Of a stretch of DNA of 64,000 bases, positions 6,845-59,040 are shown one piece after another. The DNA lies in NCBI GenBank assembly GCA_024275995.1, contig JAJRYB010000067.1, positions 28,417 through 92,416 on the forward strand, written 5' to 3'. How positions within the stretch are numbered: the first letter of the stretch is position 1; every line of letters begins with the position of its first letter. The translations under genes were made by a program, and so were the position numbers. Source of the DNA: Planctomycetota bacterium (GTDB taxonomy: Bacteria > Planctomycetota > Phycisphaerae > SM23-33). The notes under the pieces are model-generated. The model was not told the origin of the DNA, made no database searches, and saw only the letters and a program-made list of their open reading frames with translations.

Positions 6845-6876
6845 GCGCAGAGAACGCTAAGGGCGCAGAGACAACC
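6845..6876. repeat. Family-1 CAGAG-rich repeat arm (copy A) in the feo/queC convergent gap
   Basis: GCGCAGAGAACGCTAAGGGCGCAGAGACAACC, near-identical to 38253..38282. Followed by an AT-rich stretch. Confidence 0.55.
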
Positions 6877-6929
6877 AAATTAGGTAAAAAGCGGAAAATG
6901 TCTGCTGCCCAATGCCCGATGCCTGCTGC

Positions 6930-7637
6930 TTATCGATATTTCACCGGGTCGCTCGTGCCTGCGTCGGTAAAACCGGCGAGCCGCAGTCGGCAGGCGTCGC
7001 AGCGCCCGCAGGCGGCGCCCGTTTCGTCCGGATCGTAACAACTATGTGTGAGCGAGTAGTCCACGCCAAGCGCCAAACCCGTGCGGATTATCTGCCCCTT
7101 GCTCATCTCGATAAGCGGCGCGTGGATTTTGAACCGACCTTCGCCCTGCGTCGCCGCCGCGGTCGCAAGGTTGGCGAGCTTTTCGAACGCCTCCACAAAC
7201 TCGGGTCGGCAGTCCGGATAGCCGCTGTAGTCCACCGCGTTGACGCCCAGGAAAATGTCGAACGATCCGACAGTCTCGGCATATCCAAGCGCGACGCTCA
7301 GGAAGATAGTGTTGCGGGCCGGGACGTAAGTGGCGGGAATTTCCGGCGTCTCGCCAGTCTCCGGGCGGTCCTTGGGGACTTCGATTTCGTCGGTAAGCGC
7401 GCTGTGCCCGAAGCCCGCTGCGGCACTGAGGTCCAGCCGGACAACACGATGATCAATTGCGCCGAGCGATTGCGCTACGAGCCGCGCGGAGTCCAGCTCG
7501 AAACGATGCCGCTGGCCGTAATCGAAGCTCAGCGCATGGCAGAGGAAGCCTCGATCCTGCGCGATCGCCAGCACCGTAGCCGAGTCCAGCCCGCCGCTTA
7601 AAAGCACCACCGCCCTGTCCTTCTCGCCGGATGTCAT
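6930..7637 (-). CDS. queC: 7-cyano-7-deazaguanine synthase QueC
   Basis: PP-loop motif [11 protein letters not shown]-terminal Zn-binding [10 protein letters not shown]. Start trimmed to [11 protein letters not shown] (ATG at 7637). Confidence 0.9.
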
Positions 7638-7738
7638 CTCCCATACCATACCGCCCTTTAACTTTGCCGGCAATCGGTGTAGTCTGTTCGGGCAGGAGTT
7701 GTGCGGTAAAAACACGAGTCGCCTTTGACGAGGCCAAT

Positions 7739-8083
7739 ATGTCGAAACTGGAAACCTTCGATAATCCTCATCCGGGTCGGGATTACGTTATCCGGCACGT
7801 CGCGCCGGAGTTCACCAGCGTCTGCCCCAAGACGGGGCAGCCCGACTTCGGTACTATCGAGATCGAATACGTAGCGGACAAGCTCTGCGTTGAACTCAAG
7901 AGTCTCAAGCTCTACCTCCAGGGCTATCGCAACGAGGGCGTATTCTACGAGGATATCGTCAACCGGATTCTCGATGACCTCCTGTCTGCATTGAAACCTC
8001 GTCGCCTGGTTGTAACCGGCAAATTTACGCCCCGCGGCGGGATGCATTCGATCGTGACGGCCGAGCACGTCGCGCGGAGCTGA
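7739..8083 (+). CDS. queF: NADPH-dependent 7-cyano-7-deazaguanine reductase QueF (YkvM type)
   Basis: Contains [18 protein letters not shown] and the EIEY...[11 protein letters not shown] motifs. Start at [10 protein letters not shown] (ATG at 7739). Divergent from queC. Confidence 0.88.
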
Positions 8084-8287
8084 CAGGGCATTCCCGCCTG
8101 CCGACTGGCGGGCACAAGTCGCGGATAAGGGAACGTTCATGGACCTTGACGCCGTATTCGGCTGCATCGCAGTGGCGCTGTCGCTGGGACTGATTGTAGG
8201 CCTGGTGCTGTGGTCTTGCCGGTCGATCGACCGCATCGCCCGCAAGGGTCTGGGCAGTGCCCGCGAGATATTGAAGGATAAGCGCAC

Positions 8288-10567
8288 GTGACTTCCGATC
8301 GCCGGGTCTCCTCCGAACTTTCGCGGGACTTGAACCTGTTCCACGTAACCATGATGGGACTGGGGATGATGATCGGCGCGGGGGTTTTTATCGGTATCGG
8401 GATAAGCACCGGGCGCGTCGGTCCCGGAGGGGTAATCATGACGTTCGCCCTCAGCGGACTGCTTGCGCTGTTCACCGCAATGAGCTTCGCCGAACTGAGC
8501 AGCGCCATTCCCCGTGCCGGAGGCGCGTACAACTTCGCGCGAATCGCGTTCGGTCGCGGTCCCAGCTTCCTTGCCGGGTGGATGGAATGGTTCGCCTCCT
8601 CGGTCGCGGGCAGCCTGTATGCCGTGGTCTTCGCCGGATACACCGTCAAGTACGTAACCAACGGCCTGCTTGGAATGGACCTGGCGGACGAGGACCTTAT
8701 GGTGGTCGTAAGAATCGTCGCCGTCGCTGTGGCGTCGCTGTTCATCTACATCAACTACCGCGGCGCGTCCGAGACCGGAAAGATCGGCGCGATAATTACG
8801 GTTGGACAGATGCTCTTCGTCGTCGCAATCGCGGTGATTGGCATCGTAATAGCTATCGTCGAACCGTCGCGGATGGCGAACTTCACACCCTTCATGCCGA
8901 ACGGATGGGGAGAGCTCCTGGTAACGATGGGATTCATCTACGTCGCGTTCGAGGGGTTCGAGGTGATCGCCCAGGCCGGCGACGAAACGATCGACCCGAA
9001 GCGAAATATACCCAAGGCGATGCTCTACTCGGTGCTGATCGTTACGATCACGTACGTCGCCGTTTCGTTCGCGACGATGGTCTCCATCAAGAGCGGCGCC
9101 GAGGGTGTCGGCGACGAGGTCTGGCGGTGGATCGGAACGCGCGGACCCCAGGCGGACGGCGAGCACGGCTTCGGCGAGGCGATCAACCGCATGATCCCCT
9201 TCGGGGGGCTACTGGTGACGCTGGCGGTGGTGTTCGCCTCGACATCCGCGATGAACGCCACGGTCTACTCGGCGACGAGGGCGTCTTACGCGCTGGGCAG
9301 AGACCGGATGCTCCCTGCCGCGTTCGCTAAAATCAGCCCGAAACGCAAAACGCCCTACGTTGCCCTGGCGTTCACCGGCGTGATCGTGCTGGTCGTTGCG
9401 GGACTGCTGCCCACCAAAGACGTCGCGTCCTGTGCGAGCATCATGTTCCTTTTCCTGTTCCTGATGGTGAACCTGTGTGTCATAAAAATCCGGCGGAACA
9501 TGGGCGACGAGCTGACGTACGGCTTCGTAATGCCGCTTTTTCCCCTGTTTCCGATCCTGGCGATTATTTTCCAGGTGCTGCTGGCGGCGAATATCCTGCA
9601 CATGAGCCTGATGGCGTGGATCATCGCGCCAATCTGGGTGCTGGCGGGAATTGTTTTATACTTCGCCTATTCGCGATCGCGCGCCATAACCACGGCCGAC
9701 GAAATCCTCGTCATCGAAGAGGGCGAAACTCCCGCCGGAGACGGCTGCCGAATCATGGTCTCCGTCGCGAACCCCGACGGCGCCCTCCAACTCGTCCAGA
9801 ACACATACCGGATATGCTCAGCCAGGAACGCCCGCGTGGAATTGCTCCACATGGTTCCGGTTCCGGACCAGGTTCCGCTCGCCGACGCCGGGCCGTACAT
9901 GCTCGAAGGAAAAGAGGGCATCCAGGAAACGATGCTTTACCTCGCACCGCAATTCCCGATCAGCACTCACCTGCGATATTGTCGCAACGTGGCGCGTGGT
10001 ATCGTCAGCGCTGTGAGGGAAAAGAAAATCAACATGCTCATCATGGGGTGGCACGGTAGATCTCGCAGCGGGCTGTTCCACCTCGGAAGCACCGTGGACC
10101 CGATCATCGAACGGGCGCCCTGCGACGTGGTGATCCTGAAAGACTGCGGGGGGAACCGGGTGTTCAAGCGTGTGCTGGTCCCTGTCGCCGGTGGACCCAA
10201 CAGCGCACTTGCGCTGGAAATCGCCAGCACGCTCGCCGACGGTCAGGAAGGGCGCATCGTCGCGTTTACCGTGGACAGAGGCATGGGCTTCGATCTCGAT
10301 GCTTTCCTGGAAAAGAATCGATCCCGCCTGCGCTTGCCTCGCGAGCGGATAGAAACGAAAATCGTCAGCCGGGCGGATATCCGCCAGGCGATTCTCGATG
10401 AATCGCAGGAGTACGACCTGGTAGTCCTGGGCAGCACCGCCGAGGCGCGCCTGCGATTGATGAGACACGATCCGGTACCCGAAGCGGTAGCCAAGGCGTG
10501 TAAAAAACCGCTCGTAATGGTGCGGGCATCGTCGGGACTGCGAAGCTGGATCCGGCGTTGGATATAA
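8288..10567 (+). CDS. APC-family amino-acid permease fused to two C-terminal UspA (universal stress) domains
   Basis: N-terminal 12-TM region containing MMGLGMMIGAGVFIGIGI, typical of APC transporters. The C-terminal ~300 aa carries two Usp-like alpha/beta units (VELLHMVPV.., INMLIMGWHG, RVLVPVAGGPNS). GTG start. Confidence 0.8.
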   Translation: MTSDRRVSSELSRDLNLFHVTMMGLGMMIGAGVFIGIGISTGRVGPGGVIMTFALSGLLALFTAMSFAELSSAIPRAGGAYNFARIAFGRGPSFLAGWMEWFASSVAGSLYAVVFAGYTVKYVTNGLLGMDLADEDLMVVVRIVAVAVASLFIYINYRGASETGKIGAIITVGQMLFVVAIAVIGIVIAIVEPSRMANFTPFMPNGWGELLVTMGFIYVAFEGFEVIAQAGDETIDPKRNIPKAMLYSVLIVTITYVAVSFATMVSIKSGAEGVGDEVWRWIGTRGPQADGEHGFGEAINRMIPFGGLLVTLAVVFASTSAMNATVYSATRASYALGRDRMLPAAFAKISPKRKTPYVALAFTGVIVLVVAGLLPTKDVASCASIMFLFLFLMVNLCVIKIRRNMGDELTYGFVMPLFPLFPILAIIFQVLLAANILHMSLMAWIIAPIWVLAGIVLYFAYSRSRAITTADEILVIEEGETPAGDGCRIMVSVANPDGALQLVQNTYRICSARNARVELLHMVPVPDQVPLADAGPYMLEGKEGIQETMLYLAPQFPISTHLRYCRNVARGIVSAVREKKINMLIMGWHGRSRSGLFHLGSTVDPIIERAPCDVVILKDCGGNRVFKRVLVPVAGGPNSALALEIASTLADGQEGRIVAFTVDRGMGFDLDAFLEKNRSRLRLPRERIETKIVSRADIRQAILDESQEYDLVVLGSTAEARLRLMRHDPVPEAVAKACKKPLVMVRASSGLRSWIRRWI

Positions 10568-10615
10568 CGGCAGCCGGCCGGCATGCTGCCCTGCCTTTGA
10601 CGGAGACTCGAAAAC

Positions 10616-12052: not shown

Positions 12053-12061
12053 GGAAACGAC

Positions 12062-13384: not shown

Positions 13385-13388
13385 AACC

Positions 13389-14477: not shown

Positions 14478-14488
14478 CCTGGAATGCC

Positions 14489-21288: not shown

Positions 21289-22020
21289 ATGGTCAAGGTA
21301 TCGGTGATCGTCCCGGGCGCCGGCGCCGGGAGGCGCTTCGGCGGTCGTGGAAATAAAATATTCCAGCGGTTGAAGGGTCAGCCCGTTTTCATCCGAACGC
21401 TCGAGGCCTTCACGCTGCGAGACGATGTCTGCCAGACGCAGCTGGTGGTTTCCACGGAGGACATGGATGAGATCAAGGAACGGTTCGGCGGGAACCTGGG
21501 CTTCATGAACGTCGCCGTAACCGTAGGCGGCGCGACTCGCGCAGATTCGGTCCGAAACGCCCTGTCCAACGTCTCCGACGAGGCGGAGCTTATCTGCGTG
21601 CACGATGCGGTTCGCCCCTGTATAGCGGCGCCGTGGATCGACGCCGTGTTCGAGAAAGCGGAGAAAACCGGCGCGGCGATACTGGCCTATCCCCTGCACG
21701 GAACGCTGAAAAACGTGGGCGAAGGCGACGTGATCTGCGAAACGCTCTCACGCGCGGGCCTGTGGGAGGCCCAGACGCCGCAGGTCTTCCGGAAAGACCT
21801 GCTGATCAAGGCGTACGAAGGCGACCTTTTCGGCGCCACCGACGATGCCAGGCTCGTCGAAGCGATCGGACATCCCGTAAGCGTCGTCATGGGCGATCCG
21901 AGGAATATCAAGATAACGACCGCCGGCGACCTGGCAATGGCGGAGAGCGTCATCAAGTCGCTCCCGAAACCCAAACCCAAAGGCGGCTTCGACCACCCGT
22001 TCGCCGAATCGCGGCAGTAA
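21289..22020 (+). CDS. ispD: 2-C-methyl-D-erythritol 4-phosphate cytidylyltransferase IspD
   Basis: VIVPGAGAGRRFG, VHDAVRPC and the overall IspD order. 243 aa. Confidence 0.88.
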   Translation: MVKVSVIVPGAGAGRRFGGRGNKIFQRLKGQPVFIRTLEAFTLRDDVCQTQLVVSTEDMDEIKERFGGNLGFMNVAVTVGGATRADSVRNALSNVSDEAELICVHDAVRPCIAAPWIDAVFEKAEKTGAAILAYPLHGTLKNVGEGDVICETLSRAGLWEAQTPQVFRKDLLIKAYEGDLFGATDDARLVEAIGHPVSVVMGDPRNIKITTAGDLAMAESVIKSLPKPKPKGGFDHPFAESRQ

Positions 22021-22042
22021 CGGTCTAATCCGAATACTTTAA

Positions 22043-22215
22043 CCACGGAGGGCACGGAGGCCACAAAGAGAGCTGCCCCAAAAAGAGTTGTGAGACTAAT
22101 TGATGATTCTTGATAAAAGCCCGAATAAGCATAGTGTTCTTTTTCAGAGTGCTCCGCATTTTCGATAACCGCTTTTGATACAATAACCTCGGTGTTCTCT
22201 GTGCTCTCTGTGGTG
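22043..22215. repeat. AT-rich ~115-bp core flanked by inverted CAGAG-rich arms (family-2 intergenic repeat, copy C)
   Basis: Arm CCACGGAGGGCACGGAGGCCACAAAGAGAGC (22043..22073). Its inverted partner TTCTCTGTGCTCTCTGTGGTG (22195..22215). GC content far below the surroundings. Related arm at 59013..59040. Confidence 0.6.
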
Positions 22216-22234
22216 AAAAACGCGGTCTAAATAA

Positions 22235-22633
22235 ATGTCACATACGCTGATAAAACTCGGATACATAGCCGCCGGAGGGGCCATCGGCGCCGTGCTGCGG
22301 TACGGCGCGTCCGGGCTTGCATACCGCTGGCTGGGCGACGGCTTCCCGTGGGGAACGCTCGCGGTTAACATGATCGGGTCGTTCCTGATCGGACTTATCT
22401 ACCAGGTCTCACAGGCGATAAGCGTATCGCCGAACGTGCGATTGCTGACGATGGTTGGACTTCTCGGTGCGTTCACGACGTTCTCGACCTTCAGCCTGGA
22501 AACGCTGAACCTGATAACCAAACGCCTGTTCGCCGCGGCGGCGTGGAATATCCTGGCGAGCGTCGGCGCCGGGCTTCTTCTGGCGCTGTTGGGAATCGAA
22601 GTGGGCCGACTGCTGCTGGGGCCCGGACGATAG
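22235..22633 (+). CDS. crcB: Fluoride ion channel CrcB/FluC
   Basis: GAVLRYG...GTLAVNMIGSFLIG...GAFTTFSTFSLE is a CrcB signature. 132 aa. Confidence 0.88.
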   Translation: MSHTLIKLGYIAAGGAIGAVLRYGASGLAYRWLGDGFPWGTLAVNMIGSFLIGLIYQVSQAISVSPNVRLLTMVGLLGAFTTFSTFSLETLNLITKRLFAAAAWNILASVGAGLLLALLGIEVGRLLLGPGR

Positions 22634-22986: not shown

Positions 22987-25378
22987 GCTTTCTCTTTCTC
23001 GTCGTCATCGCCTTGGCGCGTGCTCGCAGGCGGGCGATCTCTGCCAGCTCCGACGCGGTGAATCGCTTGACGCTTTCCGGCAGCAGGCTTCCGTCGATTC
23101 GCTCCGCCCGGCGCAACTGTTCGAGGCACTCCGCCGCCGCACCGGAATCGCAGAGCTTTCGGGCCAGTTCCAGGCGCATGCGCAGCGCCATCGGGTTCAG
23201 TTCTATCGCACGCCGCATCGGCAAGAGCCAGGACGGATCGAGTATCGCCACGGCGGCGCCGCTCGCCGAAGTACCATGGCGGCCGGGCTTCATCATCTCC
23301 GGGTTTATCCTGTACCAGTTGATCCTCCCCCGCAGCAACCAGCTCGACGATCGCAACGGGTCCCGCTCGATCGCCTCCTCCGCCAGTGCGTCCGCACGCG
23401 ACAGGATGGCGTCCAGGTCCGACCTCGCCTCCAGCATCGCCGTCTGGAGGACCAGTTTCGCCGCGTCCCCAGCCGCGATTGCGTCCAGCGGATCGTCACG
23501 CGACGCCAGCTCCATAAGTCTCGCCGCCGCGCCGACCTGCGGCGGGCGACGTTGAAGCTGTCGCAGCGCCGATTCGGTATGGACGCTTCTCCGCCAGAGA
23601 GGTGGGCAGAAGACAATCGCAGCCGTCACGACGGCCGCGGCAGCGACGATGGCGATCGTCCATCGGGTAAGACCCGCCAGGCGTCGCCTTCCGGCGCCGG
23701 CGCTTCCCATGCACGCCCCGGCCGTGACCCAAAACAGCATCGCCGCCGCGGGTGTCCACAGGGTGAATGTCACGAGATTATGCAGGATGAACGCGACGAG
23801 TCCGCCCGCCAGCGCAACGCGAACCGGAGCGCCCGGGGCGAGCAGTCCGTCGCGCAGGCGTTCCCCGGACCACAGGACCAATCCCGCGGCGATGGCGAAA
23901 AAAGCCGCCGGAATCGTCACTTCCAGCAGCAATCCCCCGCCGGAGGCGCCGAAAACCGTAAGCGTCGCCCGCGCCGCGGCAATCGCAGCGGCGGGAACAA
24001 GCAGCATCCAAAGCCCCAAACGCCCCGGTGGCGCGCGGGGATGCGTCTTATCCCCTTGCCCCGGCCGGCACGCGCCGATAACAACGCACGCCAGCAGAAG
24101 CAGGTAGCACGCCCCGCCTGCAACGCCGTACTGCACCAGCGCGTGAACGATGAAATTGTGCGGCGTTTTAACTTCCTCCTCCGCCGAGGCTCGCCGGTGC
24201 ATCAGGTAATATGCGGGAAAGTTACCCGGCCCAACGCCCAGCAGCGGTCGGCTGCGAACGATCCTCGCCGAGGCGCTCCAGTAGTACCAGCGGAACGTCA
24301 TCGTTTTGGTCGGCAGACGATCGTGGATCATTGCGAAACCGACGACCCCCGCCAAAAGCAGTACGAATACCAGCCCGGCGGCGATCGCCGTTCGGCGCCA
24401 CCTGCGTGCGAGCCTGCGGCGTGCCAGGTATGCGATTATCGCGCCCGCCGAGGCAATGGCGGCGCCCCCCAACGCTCCCCTGCTGCCGGTAAGCGCCAAC
24501 GTAACGGGTATCGCCGCCACGATTGCGACGGTTATCGCCGCCGCCAGTGTGGGCGCGTGGACCTCGCCTTTTTTCCGCTTCTGCGACCACGCCCGTCGCA
24601 CGCGAAGGGCGGTCGAGAGTTTCTCAGCCGCCAGACCAATCGCCGCGCCGAGCGTCACCAGCAGCGTGGAAGCGAACACGTTCGAAAGTGCGATGTAACC
24701 GGTCGGCGAGGCGGACCTCACGCGGGCTTCGAAGAGTCTCGCAGCCGGCGAACCGGGCGGCGCACCGGTCGGCCCGACGCCGCCGGCTGGGTTGTCCTCG
24801 AAAAAGGCGATATTTTCCGGGATCTCGACGAAGTATTGCCACAACCCCTTGCCCGCGAGCGTCACGCCCAGGGCAACCAGCAGCACCACGAGCACGGCGA
24901 ACCGTTTTTTTCCATCGCGCGAAGCGCATAGTTGCATCGCCAACCAGCATGCCGAGATAAGCGAGACCTGCTCCAGCCAACCCGTCCACCCGGCCCGCTT
25001 GTCGGATGCGCCCATCGCCGAGAAAAACGACAGGACGACGAACGCCAGGATCGGCCAGACCAGCCAGGCGTGATGAATAATCGTTCCTCCGGATATCGCC
25101 CCTCCGATCAGCCAGAGCGCCACGGCTGAGAGGATAACGACGGCGAAGGTAACCCGCGCCGCTTCCATCCGGTCGATCGGAGGCAGAGGCTCCTCGCCGT
25201 CGCCCATGGCCGGGGAGAAGCTCTGGAAGCTCAGCGACGATACCCGAAAGCCCAACTCGGATATGAAAGGACGGGCCGTCATCACCGCAAGGAGCGTAAC
25301 GAACGCTGCGGTTCGCAGGGCGCGGGCAGCGGCGGAAAGCCCCGGCGACACATCTGCGGTATTATGCTTTGCGATCAT
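22958..25378 (-). CDS. O-antigen ligase (Wzy_C/WaaL)-like polytopic membrane protein with C-terminal TPR-like soluble domain
   Basis: More than 10 predicted TM segments. HNFIVHALVQYGVAGG region typical of O-antigen-ligase family loops. Helical repeat C-terminus. The ORF-track N-terminus (25447) lies inside the 41-bp repeat, so the start is trimmed to MIAKHNTADVS (ATG at 25378). Confidence 0.6.
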   Translation of the reverse strand: MIAKHNTADVSPGLSAAARALRTAAFVTLLAVMTARPFISELGFRVSSLSFQSFSPAMGDGEEPLPPIDRMEAARVTFAVVILSAVALWLIGGAISGGTIIHHAWLVWPILAFVVLSFFSAMGASDKRAGWTGWLEQVSLISACWLAMQLCASRDGKKRFAVLVVLLVALGVTLAGKGLWQYFVEIPENIAFFEDNPAGGVGPTGAPPGSPAARLFEARVRSASPTGYIALSNVFASTLLVTLGAAIGLAAEKLSTALRVRRAWSQKRKKGEVHAPTLAAAITVAIVAAIPVTLALTGSRGALGGAAIASAGAIIAYLARRRLARRWRRTAIAAGLVFVLLLAGVVGFAMIHDRLPTKTMTFRWYYWSASARIVRSRPLLGVGPGNFPAYYLMHRRASAEEEVKTPHNFIVHALVQYGVAGGACYLLLLACVVIGACRPGQGDKTHPRAPPGRLGLWMLLVPAAAIAAARATLTVFGASGGGLLLEVTIPAAFFAIAAGLVLWSGERLRDGLLAPGAPVRVALAGGLVAFILHNLVTFTLWTPAAAMLFWVTAGACMGSAGAGRRRLAGLTRWTIAIVAAAAVVTAAIVFCPPLWRRSVHTESALRQLQRRPPQVGAAARLMELASRDDPLDAIAAGDAAKLVLQTAMLEARSDLDAILSRADALAEEAIERDPLRSSSWLLRGRINWYRINPEMMKPGRHGTSASGAAVAILDPSWLLPMRRAIELNPMALRMRLELARKLCDSGAAAECLEQLRRAERIDGSLLPESVKRFTASELAEIARLRARAKAMTTRKRKPTAPVRDGT

Positions 25379-25387
25379 GATTTTTTT

Positions 25388-25640
25388 GATATCCACCTCG
25401 CGCCATGTGCCTGTGCTCACAGTTTTTTGATATCCACCTCGCGCCATGTGCCTGTGCTCACAGTTTTTTGATATCCACCTCGCGCCATGTGCCCGTGCTC
25501 ACAGTTTTTTGATATCCACCTCGCGCCATGTACCCGTGCTCACAGTTTTTTGATATCCACCTCGCGCCATGTGCCCGTGCTCGCAGTTTTTTGATATCCA
25601 CCTCGCGCCATGTGCCTGTGTTCACACTTTTTTGACGGGC
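25388..25640. repeat. Tandem direct repeat, 6 x 41 bp plus a degenerate seventh copy
   Basis: Unit GATATCCACCTCGCGCCATGTGCC[T/C]GTGCTCACAGTTTTTT starts at 25388, 25429, 25470, 25511, 25552 and 25593. A partial copy starts at 25634. There are 1-2 substitutions per copy. The array fills the gap between the GT4 gene stop and the ligase-like gene start. Confidence 0.95.
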
Positions 25641-26710
25641 GATTCGAGCAGCGCTATGATCAGCAGGATTGCGATGGTCTGCGCGAACAGCAGAACCGCG
25701 CCCACGGCGTCCACTCGCGCAAGCAGCGAAGCGCAGATCGCCGTCGCGGCAGTGCACAGGCAGATCGTCAGCAGCGCTGTCCGCGCGCTCATTCCGCGTC
25801 GGAGCAGGCGATGCGAAAAATGCCTCCGATCGCCGATCATCGGATTGGCGCGTTCGCGAATCCGCAGTGTGATCACGCTCGCCATATCGTAAAGCGGAAC
25901 GGCCATCAGCACCAGCGGCACGAATATCCCGTACAGGTAATAGGTCTGCCCCGGTGAAACGTAGGTCGTCAGACAGCTCACGACGCCCAGGAAGTATCCG
26001 ATCAGCATCGACCCGGCGTCGCCCATGTACGTTCGCGCCGGGGGAAAATTATAGGGCAGGAACCCCAGCAGCGCCCCGATGATCAGGCACAACCACGCCG
26101 AGACGAATATCTGCCCCATGCTCGCCGAGGCGCTCAGCAGCGCCACGGCGCAGATAACCGCCACCGAGGCGCTCAGCCCGTCCATGTTGTCCAGGAAGTT
26201 GAAGGCGTTGATAATCACGATAAGCCAGGCAAGCGAAACGATGAAGCTGACCGCCCCCCCGACGGCAGTGAGAATCCGCACGTCGCACAGCCAGACCACA
26301 CCACCGGCTACCATGACCTGTGCGGCGAGTTTCACCCACGGACCCAGCGCCCTGCGATCGTCGATAAGCCCGACAACGTGCAGTACGAACGCCCCGGCGA
26401 GAATGCCCAGCGCCTTTGGCGCCTTAAGCGCCGCCCCGGAAATGTGGGGCTTGATAGCGTCGGGAATCCAGTCCGGCACGCCGGACGCCGTCCAGATTCG
26501 CGCCAGCGACAGCGCCAGGAGGCTTGGAATAAGAATCGCGACGAAGATTGCACTTCCGCCCAGCAGGGGAACGGGCGTCGCGTGCGTCTTACGCAGGCCC
26601 GGGGGATCCATTATTCCCCATTGACGCGCAAGGCGCTGCGAAACCGGCGTCGCAAGCGCAGAAATCGCCACCGCGAGTGCGATAGTTCCGACGGCTGCCC
26701 ATATTATCAC
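25622..26710 (-). CDS. Glycosyltransferase family 4 (MraY/WecA-like undecaprenyl-phosphate sugar-1-phosphate transferase)
   Basis: NAFNFLDNMDGL motif and polytopic topology. 362 aa. Confidence 0.85.
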   Translation of the reverse strand: MIIWAAVGTIALAVAISALATPVSQRLARQWGIMDPPGLRKTHATPVPLLGGSAIFVAILIPSLLALSLARIWTASGVPDWIPDAIKPHISGAALKAPKALGILAGAFVLHVVGLIDDRRALGPWVKLAAQVMVAGGVVWLCDVRILTAVGGAVSFIVSLAWLIVIINAFNFLDNMDGLSASVAVICAVALLSASASMGQIFVSAWLCLIIGALLGFLPYNFPPARTYMGDAGSMLIGYFLGVVSCLTTYVSPGQTYYLYGIFVPLVLMAVPLYDMASVITLRIRERANPMIGDRRHFSHRLLRRGMSARTALLTICLCTAATAICASLLARVDAVGAVLLFAQTIAILLIIALLESPVKKV

Positions 26711-37040: not shown

Positions 37041-38135
37041 TCAATCGCCGAAGCTTGTTCCGATGGACCTCGCAGCCCTCACCAGCGGATCGTCAAGCGG
37101 AACGGTTCGAACCTTGTCCGCCACGTCCGCAATTTCCGTGGACGTTACTTCGCCCTGTTTCTGGACGACCATTCGCCCGAAGCGTTTTTCCATCATAAGC
37201 TCGAAGGCGTGGTATCCGAATTTCGTGGAAAGGATGCGATCGTACGGCGTGGGCGTTCCGCCGCGCTGCACGTGACCAAGGACCACCGACCGGCAGTCCA
37301 GCTCCGTTCGCTTTTCGATTTCTTTCGCAACGAACTTGCCGACACCACCCAGGCGCAAGGGGTCTGGAGAGTCTTTGATGACCTCGTCGACGAACATCTC
37401 CCCACCGATGGGTTTCGCGCCTTCGCCGACGGCTACGATCGTGAAACCCTTTCCATATCTCCGACGGTCCATGCAGTACGTCGCCACCTTGTCCAGGTCG
37501 AACGGGATTTCCGGGATCAGGATCAGGTCCGCGCCTGCGGCGACGCCCGAGTGCAGCGCCAACCACCCGGCGTAGCGCCCCATCAGCTCGACGACGATCA
37601 CGCGATGATGGCTGGACGCGGTCGTGTGGACCTTGTCCAGCGCGTCGGCGGCGGTGGCGACGGCTGTATAGTGCCCGAACGTGATATCCGTACCGCAGAG
37701 ATCGTTATCGATTGTCTTCGGCACGCCGATAATATTAATCCCGCGCTCGACAAGCTTTGCGGCGCCGCTCATCGTTCCGTCACCACCGATAACGATAATC
37801 GCGTCCAGGCCCGCCTTCTTGACGTTGTTGACCACCATGTCGCGGACGTCGCGATTCTCCCATCCGCCTTTTCCGTCCGGAACGCTGTAACTGGCGGGAT
37901 TGGCCTTGTTGCACGAACCGAGAATCGTGCCGCCCCGGGTAAGAATGTTGCTGACGCTTTTTCGATCGAGAAGGTGGTAACGGTTCTCGATCAGGCCGAG
38001 GTATCCGTCCTCGATACCGATAACTTCCAGGCCGCCGCCCATCGCGGACTTCGCAACCGCACGGATTACCGCGTTAAGCCCCGGGCAATCTCCTCCACCG
38101 GTGAGTACGCCGATTCGTCGCAAGTCACTGGCCAT
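37041..38135 (-). CDS. pfkA: 6-phosphofructokinase
   Basis: IGVLTGGGDCPGLNAVIRAV and IGGDGTMSGA motifs. The GGDG pattern is consistent with the ATP-dependent type. Confidence 0.88.
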   Translation of the reverse strand: MASDLRRIGVLTGGGDCPGLNAVIRAVAKSAMGGGLEVIGIEDGYLGLIENRYHLLDRKSVSNILTRGGTILGSCNKANPASYSVPDGKGGWENRDVRDMVVNNVKKAGLDAIIVIGGDGTMSGAAKLVERGINIIGVPKTIDNDLCGTDITFGHYTAVATAADALDKVHTTASSHHRVIVVELMGRYAGWLALHSGVAAGADLILIPEIPFDLDKVATYCMDRRRYGKGFTIVAVGEGAKPIGGEMFVDEVIKDSPDPLRLGGVGKFVAKEIEKRTELDCRSVVLGHVQRGGTPTPYDRILSTKFGYHAFELMMEKRFGRMVVQKQGEVTSTEIADVADKVRTVPLDDPLVRAARSIGTSFGD

Positions 38136-38252
38136 GCTGTTTCGTTTCCTTCCGTCTCGCCTATTTATCTACGGATCTTCGCTTTGTGCGTCGATTACTG
38201 TATCTTGCGGCCCGAATGCCCTCATGGATTAAGAAACTATTCTCACACTCAC

Positions 38253-38340
38253 CGCAGAGAACGCAAAGAGCGCAGAGAGAGAATGTTTTTCAAAAGCCAA
38301 ATTTTGTTACTTCTCTGCGTCCTCAGCGGCCTCTGCGTTG
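38253..38340. repeat. Family-1 CAGAG-rich imperfect palindrome (copy B) in the pfkA/PilZ divergent promoter region
   Basis: Arm CGCAGAGAACGCAAAGAGCGCAGAGAGAGA (38253..38282). AT-rich loop. Inverted arm TTCTCTGCGTCCTCAGCGGCCTCTGCGTTG (38311..38340). Related arm at 6845..6876. Confidence 0.6.
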
Positions 38341-38452
38341 AAGGCTGTTTTGAGATGGTTTCTGCCGTGAGAGGGTGCTAGAATCCGATCCGCGGGCAGG
38401 CTTGCGGCGAAACACATCTCAGTCCGCTCGCGGGAAAGGTCAGGCCAACACC

Positions 38453-38767
38453 ATGCCGGCACCTGAAAAAAGGACACATCCCCGTTACCCCCTGGCGACG
38501 AGCGTTCAGTTTTATCACGGCCCGAGCCAGCGGGACTTTCCAGGCCGCTGCGCGGACATTTCGCACGGTGGAATGCTGATGTACGTCCCATCGACGGTCC
38601 CGGTCCAGCCCGGCCAGCCCATCCGCCTGTCGGTCGGAAGCGTAAGTCGTCCCGAGTTCGCCATGTTCAGCGAAAAACCAGTCGATGCGACGATAGTCCG
38701 CGTCGATCGCGGTACGTTCATCTCGGAAGGTAACATCGCCGTCGGCGTGCGCTTCGCAGTCGTGTGA
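38453..38767 (+). CDS. PilZ domain protein (c-di-GMP receptor-like)
   Basis: KRTHPRYPL (RxxxR) and DISHGGM (DxSxGG) motifs. Start trimmed to the ATG at 38453. Confidence 0.7.
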   Translation: MPAPEKRTHPRYPLATSVQFYHGPSQRDFPGRCADISHGGMLMYVPSTVPVQPGQPIRLSVGSVSRPEFAMFSEKPVDATIVRVDRGTFISEGNIAVGVRFAVV

Positions 38768-51061: not shown

Positions 51062-51090
51062 TTGACAGTTTCCCGAACTCTGGTAAAAGG
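51062..51090 (+). promoter_or_regulatory. Putative sigma-70-like promoter for riboswitch transcript
   Basis: TTGACA at 51062..51067. 16-nt spacer. TAAAAG preceded by TGG. Confidence 0.3.
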
Positions 51091-51315
51091 GGAGTCGTTG
51101 CAGGTGTCCCGGCTGGAGCCGGGGCAAAAAGGGAAGCCCGTGAGAATCGGGCGCGGACGCGCCGCTGTAACCGGCGACGACCGCCGCAAATGCCACTGTT
51201 CTGATGCGTTATCAGGATGGGAAGGCGCGGTGGGCGGATGAGGCGAGAGAGCTGGAGAGAAAGCCTCGGGAGCTGGGAGCCAGAAGACCTGCCTGCGACC
51301 AACCTGTGTCGGCCT
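51083..51315 (+). promoter_or_regulatory. Cobalamin (B12) riboswitch aptamer
   Basis: AAAAGGGAAGCCCGUGAGAAUCGGGCGCGGACGCGCCGCUGUAACCGG ... AUGCCACUGUUCUGAUGCGUUAUCAGGAUGGGAAGGCG ... AGAAGACCUGCC. This reproduces the conserved core and B12-box of the E. coli btuB leader nearly position for position. Confidence 0.85.
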
Positions 51316-53521: not shown

Positions 53522-53533
53522 ACGACGGAACGC

Positions 53534-54538
53534 TCACGCGTCGGGCAGGTCCAGATCGTCCAGCAGCGTATCGATCCGCCGCGTCTCGTCCTCGCTGAGC
53601 GTGAAATCCGCAGCCTTGGCGTTCTCCGCGACCTGATCGGCGTTCCTCGCCCCGACCAGAGCGACGGTAACGCCGGGCCGGTGAATCGTCCAGTTAATGA
53701 CGAGCTGTGCGAGCGTGGCGCCGTGCGATTCGGCGATCGGGCGGATCTCGTCGAGAAACGCGTTGACCCTGCCGATAACGTCGCTTTTGAAGAAGCGGTT
53801 CCCGTTCCGCAGGTCGCCTTCGTTGAAGGTTCTCTCCGACGTGATCTTTCCCGTCAGCAGGCCCAGTTGGAGCGGGCTGTACACCAGGCTGGCGATATTA
53901 TTTTTCCGGCAGTAAGGGAGCAGGTCAGCCTCGATGCCGCGATTGACCATGCTGTACGGCGGCTGGTTCGACGCGATCGGTACCACGCCGGCGGCGGCGC
54001 GGATTTCCTCCACGGTAAAGTTGCTCACGCCGGCAGCGATAATCTTGCCCTGGGCAATCAGCTTTGCAACCGCGCCCATCGTATCTTCGACGGGCGTGGT
54101 GCCATCACGACGGTGGCACTGGTAGAGGTCGATATGGTCCGTGCCGAGACGCCGCAGGGATCGCTCGCATTCCAGGATCACGCTTTCGGGCCTGGCGTTA
54201 CTGTAAATTTTCCACGGCCGGCCCTCGGCGTCGGTCGTGTCGAAGTAGTACTCGCCCTCCTCGCTGTCCCATCGCAGGCAGTACTTCGTGAGAATCTGCA
54301 CCTTGTCGCGCCGACCTGATATCGCCTTGCCGACGATCTCCTCGCTTCGCCCGAAGCCGTACATCGGGGCGGTGTCTATCGTCGTCATTCCAACGTCGAT
54401 CGCCCTGTGAATGGCGGCGATGGCGTCGGCTTCGTCCGCGCCGCCCCACATCCATCCGCCGATCGCCCAGGCGCCGAACGCCACCGCCGAGGCCTGCACG
54501 CCGCTGGTTCCCAGTTGCCTGTATTCCATGTGTGTCAC
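53534..54538 (-). CDS. Aldo/keto reductase
   Basis: YRQLG.SG...S....[10 protein letters not shown] and the overall AKR order. Confidence 0.85.
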
Positions 54539-54692
54539 CTTCCGTTGCTTGCCGGTAAGAGCGGAACTTTGGAAAATGTTGCGGCGATTTCAAACACCGC
54601 TCCCTCGCGGTCGCGGCTAGTTGTCCGTTCGCCACGTCGGTTTCGTTTTTACTGGCTACCGGCTACTGAACACCGGCTACTGTTCCACCAAC

Positions 54693-54777
54693 CGGTAGGG
54701 GTGGGATTCGAACCCACGGTACCTTTCGGCACACCGGTTTTCAAGACCGGCTCCTTCAGCCGCTCGGACACCCTACC
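54693..54777 (-). tRNA. tRNA-Ser (UGA)
   Basis: Reverse complement: GGTAGGG TG TCCGAGCGGCTGAAGGA GCCGGTCTTGAAAACCGGT GTGCCGAAAGGTACC GTGGGTTCGAATCCCAC CCCTACC G. Long variable arm. Anticodon TGA. Confidence 0.88.
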
Positions 54778-54844
54778 ATCTGCGGCGCCGTGGCGCTTTT
54801 CCGTACGGTAACCAGCTAGATTATAACAACAGCCCACGGATTGC

Positions 54845-54880
54845 CACCTGCCTGCCGACTGCCCGCCGTGGCGGGGCAGT
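54845..54880. repeat. REP-like GC-rich hairpin element (copy 1)
   Basis: CACCTGCCTGCCGACTGCCCGCCGTGGCGGGGCAGT, with stem GACTGCCCGCC/GGCGGGGCAGTC. An inverted near-identical copy is at 59258..59292. Confidence 0.65.
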
Positions 54881-54926
54881 CAGGTCCGTGGGCATCGTCA
54901 AGCAATACGCTCAATTCAGCCGCGAA

Positions 54927-56240
54927 TCAGAACTTCCACAGAAGGTCCGCCTGCACCAGGAACAACTCGTCCTCGCCGTCAGTGGACCGGATCGGCTCGG
55001 TAAGGAACACCGTCAGGCCCGCGGCGAGGAAATCGGTGATGTTGTACTTGCCCTTGAGGACGTGTCCCCGACGATTGGTCCGGGCGAAATCGCCATCGGC
55101 GAAGAACCCCGGCAGCGAGTTATGTTCGATGTATGCGTATTCATACCCGGCGGACCAATCGCCGGCCTTTTTGTTGGTCCCGAACTTCACGCCGGCGTGG
55201 AAGGCCTTGTCCCTGCCGCGCAGAGCGTAGGCGCGTTCGCTTTCCCGGAGGTTCTGCGCGTAATCGAAGAACACGCTGATCGGAAGCCCCATAACCTCGA
55301 AGCCGACCTTGTTGTGCAGGTTGAGCACCAGGAAGTCGAGACTCCAGCCGGTGGTATTACCCCTGCTGGGCGCGCCGGCGTCGTCGTAGTGGTCGTAGTC
55401 CCACAGATTCGCCGCGAAGGCCCACTTTACGCCTTTGGCGATCTTCCAGTCGAACCCTGCCGTGTAGCCGTGCATCTGCGTGTCGGTTCCGGAGGCAGTC
55501 TCCTCCAGGATGAACCAGCCCATTCCGACGAACGGCTCAAAACCGTCCAGTCCTGGTACCGAGTATTGCGCGAAGGCGCCTTCGGGGTTGACGTCGCTGT
55601 CGATAAAGAGGTAGCTGGTCCGGAACGGGTTGGCGATCTTTCCACCGGTGATAAAGAGGCCCTTCAACCAGATCGGCCGGTAGGTCGCCCACGCCCGGTC
55701 CACCCAGATCGGTTTCTCGGAGAACAGCCCGTCGAAGCTCTGGTTGGTGCTCGTCGGATCGCTGCCGCCAAGGCTGTTCCAATCGTCCGCGTCCGCCGAA
55801 CCGGTCGCCAGGCGGAAGCCCACCTCGATCTGCCTGTCCAGCCAGGTCTTTTTGATTCCGAACCTCAGTCGGAAGCGCGCGCGGTGCCTCGTCTTGCGAT
55901 CGATATCGTCATCGTTGTCCGAGCACTCCCCCTGGTATCGCAATCGCAGGTCGCCGTAGAATTTGAGATTCTCCATCCATTTCGGTAGCGCCTCACGGCC
56001 GGCGGCGTCCGCGTTCATTTCCTTGATAAGCTTGAGCGTCTCTTCCCGCGTGATGGCCCGGCTGTTCCTGTCGGCGACCAGACGCTCCAACTCGACCAGG
56101 CGCAGCTGCTGGTCCTGGAGCTTCTTTTTCAGCGCCTTGACCGTTGTGCTGAGTTCCTCGGTTGTCGGAGGGGCCGCCGTGGCTACCGTCGCGACAACCA
56201 GCAACGCCAAGAGAGTTATCAATCCAGGTGTTTTTTGCAT
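54927..56240 (-). CDS. Putative outer-membrane porin (N-terminal coiled coil plus beta-barrel ending in aromatic residue)
   Basis: Signal peptide MQKTPGLITLLALLVVATVATA. Coiled-coil LKKKLQDQQLRLVELERL. Alternating amphipathic strands. C-terminal LLWKF. Confidence 0.55.
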   Translation of the reverse strand: MQKTPGLITLLALLVVATVATAAPPTTEELSTTVKALKKKLQDQQLRLVELERLVADRNSRAITREETLKLIKEMNADAAGREALPKWMENLKFYGDLRLRYQGECSDNDDDIDRKTRHRARFRLRFGIKKTWLDRQIEVGFRLATGSADADDWNSLGGSDPTSTNQSFDGLFSEKPIWVDRAWATYRPIWLKGLFITGGKIANPFRTSYLFIDSDVNPEGAFAQYSVPGLDGFEPFVGMGWFILEETASGTDTQMHGYTAGFDWKIAKGVKWAFAANLWDYDHYDDAGAPSRGNTTGWSLDFLVLNLHNKVGFEVMGLPISVFFDYAQNLRESERAYALRGRDKAFHAGVKFGTNKKAGDWSAGYEYAYIEHNSLPGFFADGDFARTNRRGHVLKGKYNITDFLAAGLTVFLTEPIRSTDGEDELFLVQADLLWKF

Positions 56241-56482
56241 CTGATGCTCCTTTTGCGTGAACAGGACCGGCAGATCGTCGCAGCCGACCGCTCGGCGGGG
56301 ACGAGAACCTTGCCATGTCCGGGAAAAGTATGCGTAGAGAAAGCCATGTCGGCCTGAAGGGCCTGCGAGGTCGGTGTGAACGATGCTCCTCCGGGAAACA
56401 GTGTCAAATATCGGAATCCTCGCCTTGCCCGGCACCATCATGCCCGGTCGGGTCGGAAGTTGGCCGGCGTTTTTACCGATCC

Positions 56483-57529
56483 TTACACTTTGATCGTCTT
56501 ATCCGCCTTATCCGACTGGAAGCAGGCGTCGATTACTTTCTGGATAACCGCTCCGCGTGCGAAGTCGGGCTGATCGTTCTCGCCGGTCTTGATGCTCTTG
56601 ATGAATCGTCGGTATATGCTGGGCGTGGCGGCGCATCGAACGGTTCGCCAGACGACCTTGTGGCGATCCTTACCGGCGCAGATTTCCAGCCGATCGGAAG
56701 CTTTGTCCAGGTCGATGCGCAACGCCCCCTCATCGCCGAAGATTTGCAGGCAGAGGCGGTTGACATAGCCCGTGGCGTATCGCGACGCATGGATAGTCCC
56801 GACTGCCCTACCGGCAAATTCGATCGTGATGACGGCGGAGTCGTTCGCATCCAGCCGGTATTTGCCGATCCTGTTACCGGGCGCTTTCGGAAAGTTCTTG
56901 AGCAGGCAATGCACCTTCCTGACCTCCCCGGCCGGGTAGGTGGCGAAGTCCAGAATGTGCACGCCGACATCGCCCAGTACGCCCATGCTGCCGTGCTTCG
57001 TCGAGAGACGCCACAGCCAACCCTCGCTGGTTCGCCAGTCGCCCCAGACCTTGCTGGACAACCAGCTCTGGAGATAACTCGCTTCGATGTGCATGACTTT
57101 GCCGATCCTGCCGTCATGGACAAGTTGGCGGGCCTTGTGGATCACCGGGAAATCGCGATAGGAAAAGTTGACCATGTTAATCACGCCTTTTCGCCTGGCG
57201 GCGTCGGACATCTTTTTGGCGTCGGCGTAACAGGTCGCCAGCGGCTTTTCGCAAAGCACGTGTTTTCCGGCGGCGATAGCCTCCAGCGACAAGGGGGCGT
57301 GGAAGGCGTCGGAGGTCACGTTGGCGACGGCATCGCAGTCGGTACGATCAAGCAATTCGGAGAAGTCGACGAAAACAGGGATCTTAAGACCGTGGCGCCG
57401 CGCGAACGCTTCAGCCCGTTTCTTGTCCACGTCACAGACGGCGGAAATTTTGCAGCCGCGAATCTTCCCGAAGTTTTCCGCGTGCGTATTGGCCATGCCT
57501 CCAGTTCCGACAATCGCGATCTTGATCAT
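56483..57529 (-). CDS. Gfo/Idh/MocA-family NAD(P)-dependent oxidoreductase
   Basis: MIKIAIVGTGGMANTHAENF Rossmann motif and EKPLA motif. Confidence 0.85.
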   Translation of the reverse strand: MIKIAIVGTGGMANTHAENFGKIRGCKISAVCDVDKKRAEAFARRHGLKIPVFVDFSELLDRTDCDAVANVTSDAFHAPLSLEAIAAGKHVLCEKPLATCYADAKKMSDAARRKGVINMVNFSYRDFPVIHKARQLVHDGRIGKVMHIEASYLQSWLSSKVWGDWRTSEGWLWRLSTKHGSMGVLGDVGVHILDFATYPAGEVRKVHCLLKNFPKAPGNRIGKYRLDANDSAVITIEFAGRAVGTIHASRYATGYVNRLCLQIFGDEGALRIDLDKASDRLEICAGKDRHKVVWRTVRCAATPSIYRRFIKSIKTGENDQPDFARGAVIQKVIDACFQSDKADKTIKV

Positions 57530-57567
57530 GTGCGGCTCCTTTTAATCCGTATCACCTGCGCGTCTTT

Positions 57568-58344
57568 TTAATCTTGCTCGATTCCGGCCTTACCGAAATC
57601 GATCTGCCTGTCGGGAACATCTTCGATTGGCTTGGCGATGTGCGCGCAAGCGGGGAATGAAGCCTCCATCCGCGGCGCCGCCCAGCGGACGGCATTACAG
57701 ATGACCTTGCGGACCTGCTCGTTGTAGAAGATGGGGTACGTCTCGTGTCCGGGACGGAAGTAGAAGATGCGCCCGTGCCCCCTCTGCCAGCAGCATCCGC
57801 TGCGGAATACCTCCCCACCTTCGAACCACGAAACGAAGATGAGCTTTTCCGGTGCCGGAACGTCGAACCGCTCGCCGTACATTTCCGCGTTCGGCAGCTC
57901 GATGTACTCGCCTATGCCCTCGGTGATGGGGTGGGACGGTTCAAGGTTCCACAGCCGTTCCTTCTCGGCGATTTCGCGCCAGTGAAGCGAGCAGGTTGTC
58001 CCGAGCAGACGCCCGAATATCTTCGCAAAGTGCCCGGAGTGCAGGACGATCAGCCCCATGCCGGACAGGACCCGCTCCTGGACGCGATCGACAACCTCCT
58101 CGGCGACTTCCCCGTGAGCGACATGCCCCCACCAGGTCAGTACATCGGTATCGGCGAGAACTTCCTCGCTCAGGCCGTGCTCCGGTTCGTCCAGTGTCGC
58201 CGTGCGGACATTAAACCCACCGGCGGCGCTCAGAAAATCGGCGATGACGGTGTGCATCCCGTCGGGATAAAGTTTCCTGACGGCCTCGTGTTGTATCTCA
58301 TGACGAAATTCATTCCAAACCGTTACGCGAACGTTGGCGGGCAT
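57568..58344 (-). CDS. ThuA-family (trehalose-utilisation-like) class-I glutamine-amidotransferase-fold protein
   Basis: [24 protein letters not shown]-terminal pattern characteristic of ThuA. Paired with a Gfo/Idh/MocA gene as usual. Confidence 0.7.
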
Positions 58345-59012
58345 ACTTATTCCTTTCCGGTGTTATCAGGCAAACTATAACATTTTATTGATGTTCGTAT
58401 TGTGAATGTAATCTCCGGTTTGCCTTCAGGCCCGATTTGACGGCCGCAACTGCCTTCGGCAGGTTGCATTGGCAAGACGAAGATCAATATGATAGAGATG
58501 ACGTATTGACGGGACACCCCGTCCCCTGCCGACAGTCGCCGAGAACTCCGCGGATACGCCATGTCTTTCTTAAGTTGTCATAAATCGCAATCTTGCGCTG
58601 CATATACCTCAATTTCCCGTTTCGTAACAGCCGGAATTCCCCTTTATCGTCTTTTTTTTTCACCTGCGCCGTGCGGACCGACGGAAACAGGAACAGTAGC
58701 CGGTAACCGGTAGTCAGCTTGCCGCGCCGTAGCCCGCAGGGCGAAGGCGGGTAGCCCGTGGCCGCTACTGGATACGGGCTACGGACTACGAACTACGAAA
58801 AAAGTGCCCTTTCTGTGCGCCCGGATGGACCAGCGACCATCCGATTCGTCCGAAAAAATATAAAAAAATATTCCACGCCTGAATAAAGAGTTGCGCACGT
58901 CACTTTTCGAAAAGTTACCTGTTCGGGTAGCTAAAACAGGGGTATTGGCCCAAGTATGGAGGGCTCGCATTACGCGCGCCCGGTTATTTGACAATAGAAC
59001 AGCGAAAAGCCG

Positions 59013-59040
59013 CCACAGAGGTCACAGAGGCCACGAAGGT
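59013..59040. repeat. Family-2 CAGAG-rich repeat arm (copy D)
   Basis: CCACAGAGGTCACAGAGGCCACGAAGGT. Related to 22043..22073. Confidence 0.55.

Follow-up and report, generated by a model that had tools for sequence, protein, structure and literature searches.

The REP and REPIN sequences of bacteria, repetitive extragenic palindromes that are mobilised by RAYT tyrosine transposases (Bertels & Rainey 2011, PMC3116915; Di Nocera et al. 2013, PMC3733652), come closest in behaviour to the element described here, though the features that define them are lacking in it. The element lies in a stretch of 64,000 nt (the window) from a Planctomycetota bacterium of the Phycisphaerae (assembly GCA_024275995.1, contig JAJRYB010000067.1, positions 28,417 to 92,416 of the forward strand), where a CAGAG-rich arm of about 32 bp recurs at four sites, either alone or in inverted pairs. 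The nearest precedent for a short tandem unit that is spread over distant phyla without a known vector is provided by the TAACTGA heptamer sets of Beggiatoaceae, Cyanobacteria and Bacteroidetes (MacGregor 2015, PMC4679880). For palindromes whose cores flip, hairpin-associated small inversions have been described in the trnH-psbA spacer of chloroplasts (Whitlock et al. 2010, PMC2903610).

A regular expression for at least two tandem units of the form C[GA]C[AGT][AG]AG[AG]N found exactly six arrays in the 64-kb window, each made of three tandem 9-nt units, at 6846-6872, 22044-22070, 38253-38279 and 59014-59040 on the plus strand and at 22188-22214 and 38311-38337 on the minus strand. In 300 dinucleotide-preserving shuffles the mean was 0.04 arrays of at least two units, with none of three, and a search with the consensus CRCAGAGNNCRCAGAGNNCRCAGAG at no more than three mismatches returned the same six sites against 0.02 expected. 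While this unit pattern was derived from the window data itself, the database results given below provide independent support. The original prediction, made from the sequence alone, had reported CAGAG-rich copies at coordinates that are correct to within 1-3 nt; the arm that it placed at 22195-22215 is indeed present, but extends over 22188-22214 and comprises three units. It also stands that the copies are intergenic (six of the six arrays) and that AT-rich stretches adjoin them, the neighbouring DNA being 62-74% AT compared with 39% for the window as a whole.

Each unit reads C(G/A)C(A/G)(G/A)AG followed by two variable bases, so that three units follow one another with a 9-nt period behind a 5-nt head. 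The heads in the window are TTCAG, TTAAC, CTCAC, TTCAC and TTCAA, plus one non-canonical GCCGC. The similarity between copies is not confined to the units, since 6842-6871 and 38249-38278 are identical at 27 of 30 positions (90%), spacer bases included. The two families into which the copies had originally been sorted differ only in CGC versus CAC and share one architecture, and in other genomes CGC and CAC units are mixed inside single arms. We therefore treat them as one.

To place the element in a wider context, the GTDB genomes (one per species) were scanned with the pattern CRCAGAGNNCRCNRAGNNCRCAGAG, which returned at least 120 loci, and the viral contigs of IMG/VR contributed at least 120 more; by our own estimate, such a pattern should be met by chance about 17 times in the whole 596-Gb genome collection. 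The figures below on heads, unit counts, pairing, cores and neighbours rest on sampled loci (about 280, numbered L in what follows) rather than on whole genomes, with crude open reading frame (ORF) calls as gene maps. Matches listed from GTDB come from more than 10 phyla, including Acidobacteriota, Chloroflexota, Planctomycetota, Verrucomicrobiota, delta-, beta- and gamma-proteobacteria, Bacteroidota, Cyanobacteria, Cloacimonadota and Gemmatimonadota, and the cultured carriers include Bacteroides finegoldii, B. ovatus, Gemmatirosa kalamazoonensis and Pseudoalteromonas shioyasakiensis. By contrast, 5,426 genomes of E. coli gave zero matches, and among Phycisphaerae relatives the distribution is patchy, with 0 arrays in 20 kb of one and 11 in 20 kb of another. 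Many viral contigs carry arrays, some of them in almost every intergenic spacer. A dispersed miniature repeat had been predicted from the window, and that part of the prediction is borne out by further copies that turn up elsewhere in the Phycisphaerae, across more than 10 phyla and on viral contigs. The units are short and purine-rich, as chance GA-rich low-complexity tracts would also be, but six arrays against 0.02-0.04 expected, and more than 240 further loci with a common head, polarity and unit number, none of which was part of the search pattern, leave chance with virtually no credibility, and we reject it. A search of the literature in open-access full text, which leaves room for an earlier description elsewhere, found no account of this element.

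The copies share an anatomy that the search did not impose. Directly 5' of the array, 161 arms yield the head consensus TT(C/A)AC (T 65%, T 71%, M, A 73%, C 83%). Among the matches listed, the number of units is exactly three in 272 of 299 seed arrays and in 75 of 121 partner arms, and pairs are arranged head-out, with 54 in plus-then-minus order and the reverse order in three loci only (L007, L036 and L041). The cores of paired copies are 60% AT compared with 39% in the flanks (p = 4e-10), vary from 6 to 279 nt across loci (31 and 117 nt in the window) and are unrelated in sequence from one copy to another. A weaker palindromy often extends outward from the arms (GAAGAAnTTCAC ... GTGAAnTTCTTC) as well as inward through A/T-rich sequence. 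Nested copies are seen at L048 and L067, and clustered ones also occur (Pseudoalteromonas, L190). Within a genome or contig, copies are near-identical down to their spacers, and in viral contigs the heads are contig-specific, indicating that they are copies of one another rather than the products of convergence. In contigs with at least three solo arrays, 46 of 53 lie on the majority strand (38.3 expected, p = 4e-4), and these co-oriented arrays are sense in some contigs and antisense in others, with those of L214 all on one strand. Since co-orientation is thus independent of the sense of transcription, the polarity appears to be set by replication or insertion. IS200/IS605 insertion sequences (IS) show such a strand bias. 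The GC skew of the window itself is flat and provides no information on how arm orientation relates to the direction of replication.

With moderate confidence, we interpret the arrays as one family of small non-coding REP/REPIN-like repeats, for which we suggest the term periodic-arm palindromes, that behave as recombinogenic or mobile DNA. The module would be the arm of about 32 bp, a TT(C/A)AC head with three 9-bp units of CRCAGAG plus two variable bases, and two such arms, heads outward, on either side of an AT-rich core whose length varies, would make up a long imperfect palindrome, with solo arms existing as well. Spread may proceed through hairpin or single-strand intermediates, either by means of an enzyme acting in trans in the manner of REP/RAYT or IS200/IS605 systems, with TTMAC as the target or cleavage motif, or by template switching at the palindrome during replication. 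As a by-product, a transcribed pair would form a strong RNA hairpin after or between genes that could serve as a terminator, an attenuator or a barrier to decay. If this explanation is the best one, as we believe, the sites in the window mark four places of intergenic insertion or retention, and neither four regulated genes nor four small RNA genes.

The resemblance to REP/REPIN sequences is extensive. Like these, the arms are short, extragenic and multi-copy, and stand either alone or as inverted doublets able to form long hairpins. In both, a short conserved head adjoins the body, copies form clusters, several phyla (Planctomycetes among them) are represented, and side effects on transcription termination and on the stability of mRNA are plausible. 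The arms are also over-represented in extragenic DNA (six arms at four sites in 64 kb, with 0.02 expected). However, a REP unit is an imperfect palindrome of 20-40 bp headed by GTAG or CGTC, whereas the arm here is a direct triple 9-mer that is not self-complementary and is headed by TTMAC. REPIN doublets are the replicating unit and have a conserved spacer; head-out doublets are frequent here too (54 pairs), but they enclose unrelated spacers of 6-279 nt and their arms are unmatched at the spacer positions. Moreover, REPs flank a cognate RAYT gene and are lineage-specific in sequence, whereas the unit here recurs across phyla and no RAYT-like gene flanked by arms was found at the roughly 280 sampled loci. 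Miniature inverted-repeat transposable elements (MITEs) such as Correia, ERIC and Nezha are likewise small and intergenic, with terminal inverted repeats, an AT-rich non-coding interior and nested copies, but differ from this element in that it has no target-site duplication, no conserved interior or length, no related autonomous IS, internally periodic repeats and many solo arms. The REP/MITE-like label given to it originally is thus apt as an analogy, REP being the better one, but not as a class assignment: the arm is not palindromic, has no GTAG or CGTC head and no RAYT gene, and neither a target-site duplication nor a conserved interior is seen.

The TAACTGA sets are similar in that they consist of 2-6 tandem units of 7-9 nt, are intergenic and patchily distributed over distant phyla, and show no pattern in the functions of their neighbours. 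Yet they precede start codons by a few nt, read in the sense direction, and include a single indirect repeat among 170 sets, while the present arrays are preceded by a head, have a fixed number of three units, pair head-out and favour neither strand. In both cases the patchy distribution over distant phyla suggests horizontal spread by a mechanism that is not evident. Short tandem or dispersed repeats of a comparable kind are also known from cyanobacteria, namely the short tandemly repeated repetitive (STRR) heptamers and small dispersed repeats.

Is it the hairpin or the motif that is maintained? Between paired arms, the variable spacer bases are Watson-Crick complementary in 40% of cases compared with 35% by chance (p = 0.07), or in 60% compared with 53% when G-U pairs are counted, and only 3 of 53 arm pairs are perfectly complementary. 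Unit position 4 is paired in 66%, against 65% by chance. While the CAC or CGC type is concordant between the two arms (91% versus 50%), it is equally concordant among the direct repeats of one arm, and hence pairing does not explain this concordance. Conservation thus applies to the motif and not to the pairing. Where solo arrays lie between co-directional ORFs, 27 are in sense and 26 in antisense orientation, and at the gathering threshold Rfam 15 gave no relevant match on the window or on 18 element-bearing loci; with E values of up to 5, only chance miRNA-like hairpin matches arose on 38136-38460, 22000-22260 and 58345-59359. The original prediction had offered a family of small structured RNAs as an alternative, and the intergenic location and the strong folding of paired copies would be in keeping with small structured RNA (sRNA) genes. 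However, lacking covariation, strand bias and an Rfam match, with unrelated cores of 6-279 nt and a whole element that can be inverted without consequence, the copies are most improbable as sRNA genes and we reject this reading; the stem alone is not what is maintained.

Turnover of the element was followed in Bacteroides, which served as a stand-in for the comparison of orthologous sites, and the evidence for mobility accordingly comes from this genus and not from the Phycisphaerae source genome. In B. finegoldii, the spacer between nadC and a sigma70 gene contains a perfect TTCAC-(CACAGAGNN)x3 ... x3-GTGAA directly after the nadC stop codon. The element is missing from four other lineages whose NadC is 88-95% identical, and the same slot is occupied by an unrelated hairpin with a T-run in three sister lineages and by nothing in one. 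A second element, inside the gmd-fcl operon, is shared by B. ovatus and B. finegoldii as an orthologue, yet its full length lies in opposite orientations in the two: once reverse-complemented, the B. ovatus copy differs from that of B. finegoldii at 4 of 64 positions, compared with 16 of 64 when the two are aligned directly. Among 19 B. ovatus/xylanisolvens loci in which Fcl is identical or 97% identical (L263-L281, positions 2385-2503), seven alleles of the gmd-fcl spacer were found. Nonamers in one allele type (CACAGAGGA) are replaced by decamers in another (CACAGATTAA) between the same TTTCAC ... GTGAA boundaries. Alleles B1 and B2 differ by a flip of the core (1 of 70 mismatches when inverted, 10 of 70 when compared directly), and further alleles have lost exactly one 10-nt unit or show point variants. 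A polymorphism lies 5 nt outside the element, and each of its two states is found with nonamers as well as with decamers, so that all four combinations exist. Overall, the element marks a hotspot where sequence is gained, lost and inverted, with slippage and cassette-like exchange, between boundaries that persist.

The flips at gmd-fcl resemble those of chloroplast palindromes, in which a core between inverted repeats also changes orientation between or within species while the flanks remain identical; those palindromes are, however, confined to single loci, with no dispersed family, no periodic arms and no swaps of arm type. An inverton, too, presents a segment between inverted repeats in both orientations, as do the two flips at gmd-fcl, but the flipped cores are 11 and 18-19 nt long, and thus too short for a promoter, and no recombinase gene, including a cognate invertase, lies nearby.

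Several observations weigh against the view that the arrays are recombinogenic or mobile repeats. Target-site duplications, which the original prediction had singled out as worth checking, were not found: around 54 pairs, no direct repeat of 2-8 nt exceeded shuffles at boundary offsets of 0-8, beyond a weak 2-nt signal at the pair boundaries (7 versus 1.1 expected). No protein family recurs within 1.5 kb of the arrays (120 loci) or in array-rich contigs, the neighbours belonging to abundant generic families only, such as short-chain dehydrogenases, response regulators and phage structural proteins. None of the 28 ORFs that are flanked by arrays on both sides encodes a transposase or recombinase domain, an absence that a sample of about 280 loci leaves unproven. 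The core sequences are unrelated between copies, unlike those of MITEs and REPINs, and no clean empty site was recovered, even when the 225-nt tandem cluster was compared between two Pseudoalteromonas strains. The nearest relatives of the source genome, judged by IspD, share at most 72% identity and have lost synteny, which leaves no orthologous-site comparison for the copies in the window. Finally, unless there is a conserved protein partner or horizontal transfer is frequent, it is difficult to account for an identical unit across phyla.

Other observations on the same side favour a selected role as RNA. It is possible that the pairs are cis-acting RNA hairpins, selected for terminating or attenuating transcription or for protecting or processing the 3' ends of mRNAs and the sites between cistrons, in the way that REPs act within operons of E. 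coli; similarity in sequence would then reflect a preferred recipe for a stem. This view overlaps with our preferred one and differs from it in the property on which selection acts. The positions speak for this, since the arms at sites 1 and 2 of the window (described below) begin 23-24 nt past stop codons, convergent spacers hold twice as many pairs as divergent ones (25 versus 12), and the B. finegoldii element sits in the exact slot of the hairpin and T-run terminators of sister species. At gmd-fcl, the hairpin was retained although its sequence was swapped, with both unrelated arm types keeping a stem of 25-26 bp at the same place. The two pairs in the window fold at -40 and -59 kcal/mol (z about -3.5), and a crude scan detects no excess of canonical terminators in the window: candidates did not exceed shuffles in two of three segments, and the only one at an element is the sub-hairpin 38323-38341. 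Yet solo arms are common and cannot fold, solo arrays have no sense or antisense bias, and the spacer positions lack covariation, whereas head, unit, number of units (three) and head-out polarity are kept far more strictly than a stem would require. Bidirectional intrinsic terminators likewise form strong hairpins after stop codons or in convergent spacers, with a 5' flank that is somewhat A-rich and, by symmetry, a 3' flank that is T-rich. Unlike these, the elements are flanked by GTGAA and then mixed sequence with no proper or consistent T-run after the stem, they have conserved arms, heads and unit numbers, they occur as solo arms, and copies are located in a divergent promoter region (site 3) and inside an operon (gmd-fcl). 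Selection for hairpins, though the main rival and not exclusive of our preferred explanation, is therefore unlikely to account for the family as a whole. Nevertheless, transcribed pairs probably do act as terminators, attenuators or decay barriers in places, as would fit the nadC slot and sites 1 and 2.

Another scenario is that the arrays are binding sites for a conserved sequence-specific DNA- or RNA-binding protein, for example one of the ribbon-helix-helix type, a nucleoid or partition-like factor, or a phage or host repressor with stoperator-like sites, in which case the AT-rich core bracketed by arrays would be a promoter or an unwinding element. It would accommodate the conservation of motif rather than pairing, the exact three units and head, the head-out polarity, the AT-rich cores, the heterologous arms at site 1, the co-oriented solo arrays of some phage contigs (L214) and the recurrence of the same unit across phyla. 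It is not evident, however, why such sites should not be conserved at orthologous loci, or why nonamers and decamers should be swapped at one site while the flanking genes are unchanged. There is no co-occurring gene and the neighbours have no common function, a 9-bp period does not keep the sites on one face of B-DNA, and cores as short as 6-20 nt are too small for a promoter. We regard a binding-site function as slightly less plausible still than selection for hairpins. Several narrower functions were considered and set aside. A part in translation initiation through Shine-Dalgarno-like purine tracts is contradicted by the lack of an orientation bias and by a distance of 96-176 nt to the next start codon in the window. 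By inspection, the commonest unit, CACAGAG, fits neither CsrA-type GGA sites nor the ARN triplets bound by Hfq. The likeness of TTCAC and CACA to parS, the DnaA box or a CRP half-site amounts to 4-5 nt in common, the remaining positions being unconserved.

Returning to the periodic-arm palindromes as mobile repeats, one could go further and propose that the arrays are the recognition sites of a putative widespread enzyme of bacteria and phages, for example a domesticated HUH/Y1 enzyme or a hairpin-resolving recombinase, that inserts, flips and exchanges hairpin cassettes at TTMAC on single-stranded DNA, which would make them a new class of ultra-small mobile element, with an arm of one head and three nonamers that is conserved from Bacteroides to Planctomycetes. 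This is a speculative proposal and we give it little weight. Perhaps the recogniser of TTMAC-(CRCAGAGNN)x3 would reveal either such a new mechanism for mobilising ultra-small elements or a conserved nucleic-acid-binding factor. If our interpretation is correct, one tiny and uncatalogued DNA module has spread, or been retained, across much of the bacterial tree and in phages. It would create spurious ORFs and start-codon over-extensions, might substitute for terminators, and would form hotspots of strain-level variation (flips, loss of units and cassette swaps) beside housekeeping genes in gut Bacteroides. The four sites in the window should be annotated as repeat elements and not as regulatory RNAs.

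At site 1, a solo arm of the CGC type (6841..6872, plus strand) consists of the head TTCAG and the units CGCAGAGAA, CGCTAAGGG and CGCAGAGAC. It begins 23 nt past the stop codon of a FeoB-associated small ORF (6644-6823), in a spacer that is convergent with queC (6930-7715, minus strand). An AT-rich stretch follows, 67% AT in its first 30 nt, and then a CTGCC-type periodic array in the position expected of a partner arm (6873..6929 together; CTGCTGCCC AATGCCCGA TGCCTGCTGC), so that the site is a heterologous pair. The hairpin that it could form is not significant (z -0.8 versus shuffles). Site 2 is a pair of the CAC type between ispD (21289-22020) and crcB (22235-22633). Its left arm (22039..22070, plus strand) begins 24 nt past the ispD stop codon and comprises the head TTAAC with CACGGAGGG, CACGGAGGC and CACAAAGAG; the core (22071..22187) is 117 nt long and 62% AT; and the right arm (22188..22217, minus strand), which reads TTCAC followed by CACAGAGAG, CACAGAGAA and CACCGAG on the minus strand, ends 18 nt upstream of the crcB start (22235). 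The pair folds at -59 kcal/mol (z -3.2 versus shuffles). No fluoride riboswitch was detected upstream of crcB (22021-22234) in Rfam with E values of up to 5, the 5' spacer being filled by the paired element in its place.

Site 3 occupies the divergent spacer between pfkA (37041-38135, minus strand) and a PilZ-domain gene (38375-38767, plus strand) and is a pair of the CGC type. The left arm (38248..38279, plus strand) has the head CTCAC and the units CGCAGAGAA, CGCAAAGAG and CGCAGAGAG, the core (38280..38310) is 31 nt long and 74% AT, and the right arm (38311..38342, minus strand) reads TTCAA, CGCAGAGGC, CGCTGAGGA and CGCAGAGAA on the minus strand. This pair folds at -40 kcal/mol (z -3.8), its spacer positions forming 2x2 internal loops, and a weaker palindromy extends outward (AGAAAC ... 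GTTTCT). Site 4, a solo arm of the CAC type (59009..59040, plus strand; the non-canonical head GCCGC, then CACAGAGGT, CACAGAGGC and CACGAAGGT), is situated inside a non-coding region of 1,015 nt (58345-59359). The description of the copies as paired imperfect palindromes is accordingly right for sites 2 and 3, whose arm-core-arm units fold better than shuffles, while the solo copies at 6846 and 59014 have no homologous inverted partner and fold no better than shuffles (z -0.8 and -1.2).

The source genome carries further arrays of this general design. The non-coding region around site 4, between a ThuA-like gene and an ORF of unknown function, contains several periodic-array families and has no Rfam match. 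One is a family of GTAG heptamers at 58697-58720, 58766-58799 and 54645-54680 (GTAGCCG GTAACCG GTAGTCA, with the inverted partner CTACGGA CTACGAA CTACGAA), of which one copy lies directly beside a tRNA-Ser gene; the family may be related to GTAG-tagged REPs. Another is a CTGCC/GGCAG family at 6900-6929, 54845-54875 and 59262-59292, the latter two copies being 87% complementary over 31 nt, and a decamer array, GGTACGnnnn x3, is found at 59219-59248. The genome therefore carries several periodic-array families built on the same plan. Elsewhere in the window, a 41-nt tandem repeat at 25341-25668 (6-7 copies, 96% matches, consensus TTTTTTGATATCCACCTCGCGCCATGTGCCCGTGCTCACAG) takes up the spacer that separates a Wzy_C (O-antigen ligase-like) gene from a glycosyltransferase family 4 gene, and a cobalamin riboswitch (RF00174, 100 bits) is located at 51085-51310 on the plus strand.

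Additional observations concern other genomes. In Bacteroides, the protein database contains Fcl homologues of 364-425 aa that look over-extended, their start codons being placed such that the reading frame runs through the stop-free arrays. Downstream of fcl (L263-L281, 3565-4000), a terminator-like hairpin is followed by about five tandem-like 21-nt repeats (TAGCTATAATGATAAT...), with a 130-nt indel between strains. In a viral contig (L170, 2100-6900), CACAGAG arrays are directly followed by CACGGATTAA-like decamers (AACCACGGATTAACACGGATTAAC), the same type of decamer that replaces nonamers in Bacteroides. A megaplasmid of Pseudoalteromonas shioyasakiensis (L244, 1200-2150) has a tandem repeat of about 225 nt that is built around a CACAGAG arm pair, with a 12-nt insertion splitting the left arm, and this repeat occurs at 7 places in the record. 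In a metagenome-assembled genome of the Pyrinomonadaceae (L014, 630-2894), an array of 11 tRNA genes is followed by a gathering-threshold match to YrlA (Y RNA-like), with a CGCAGAG element some 2 kb away.

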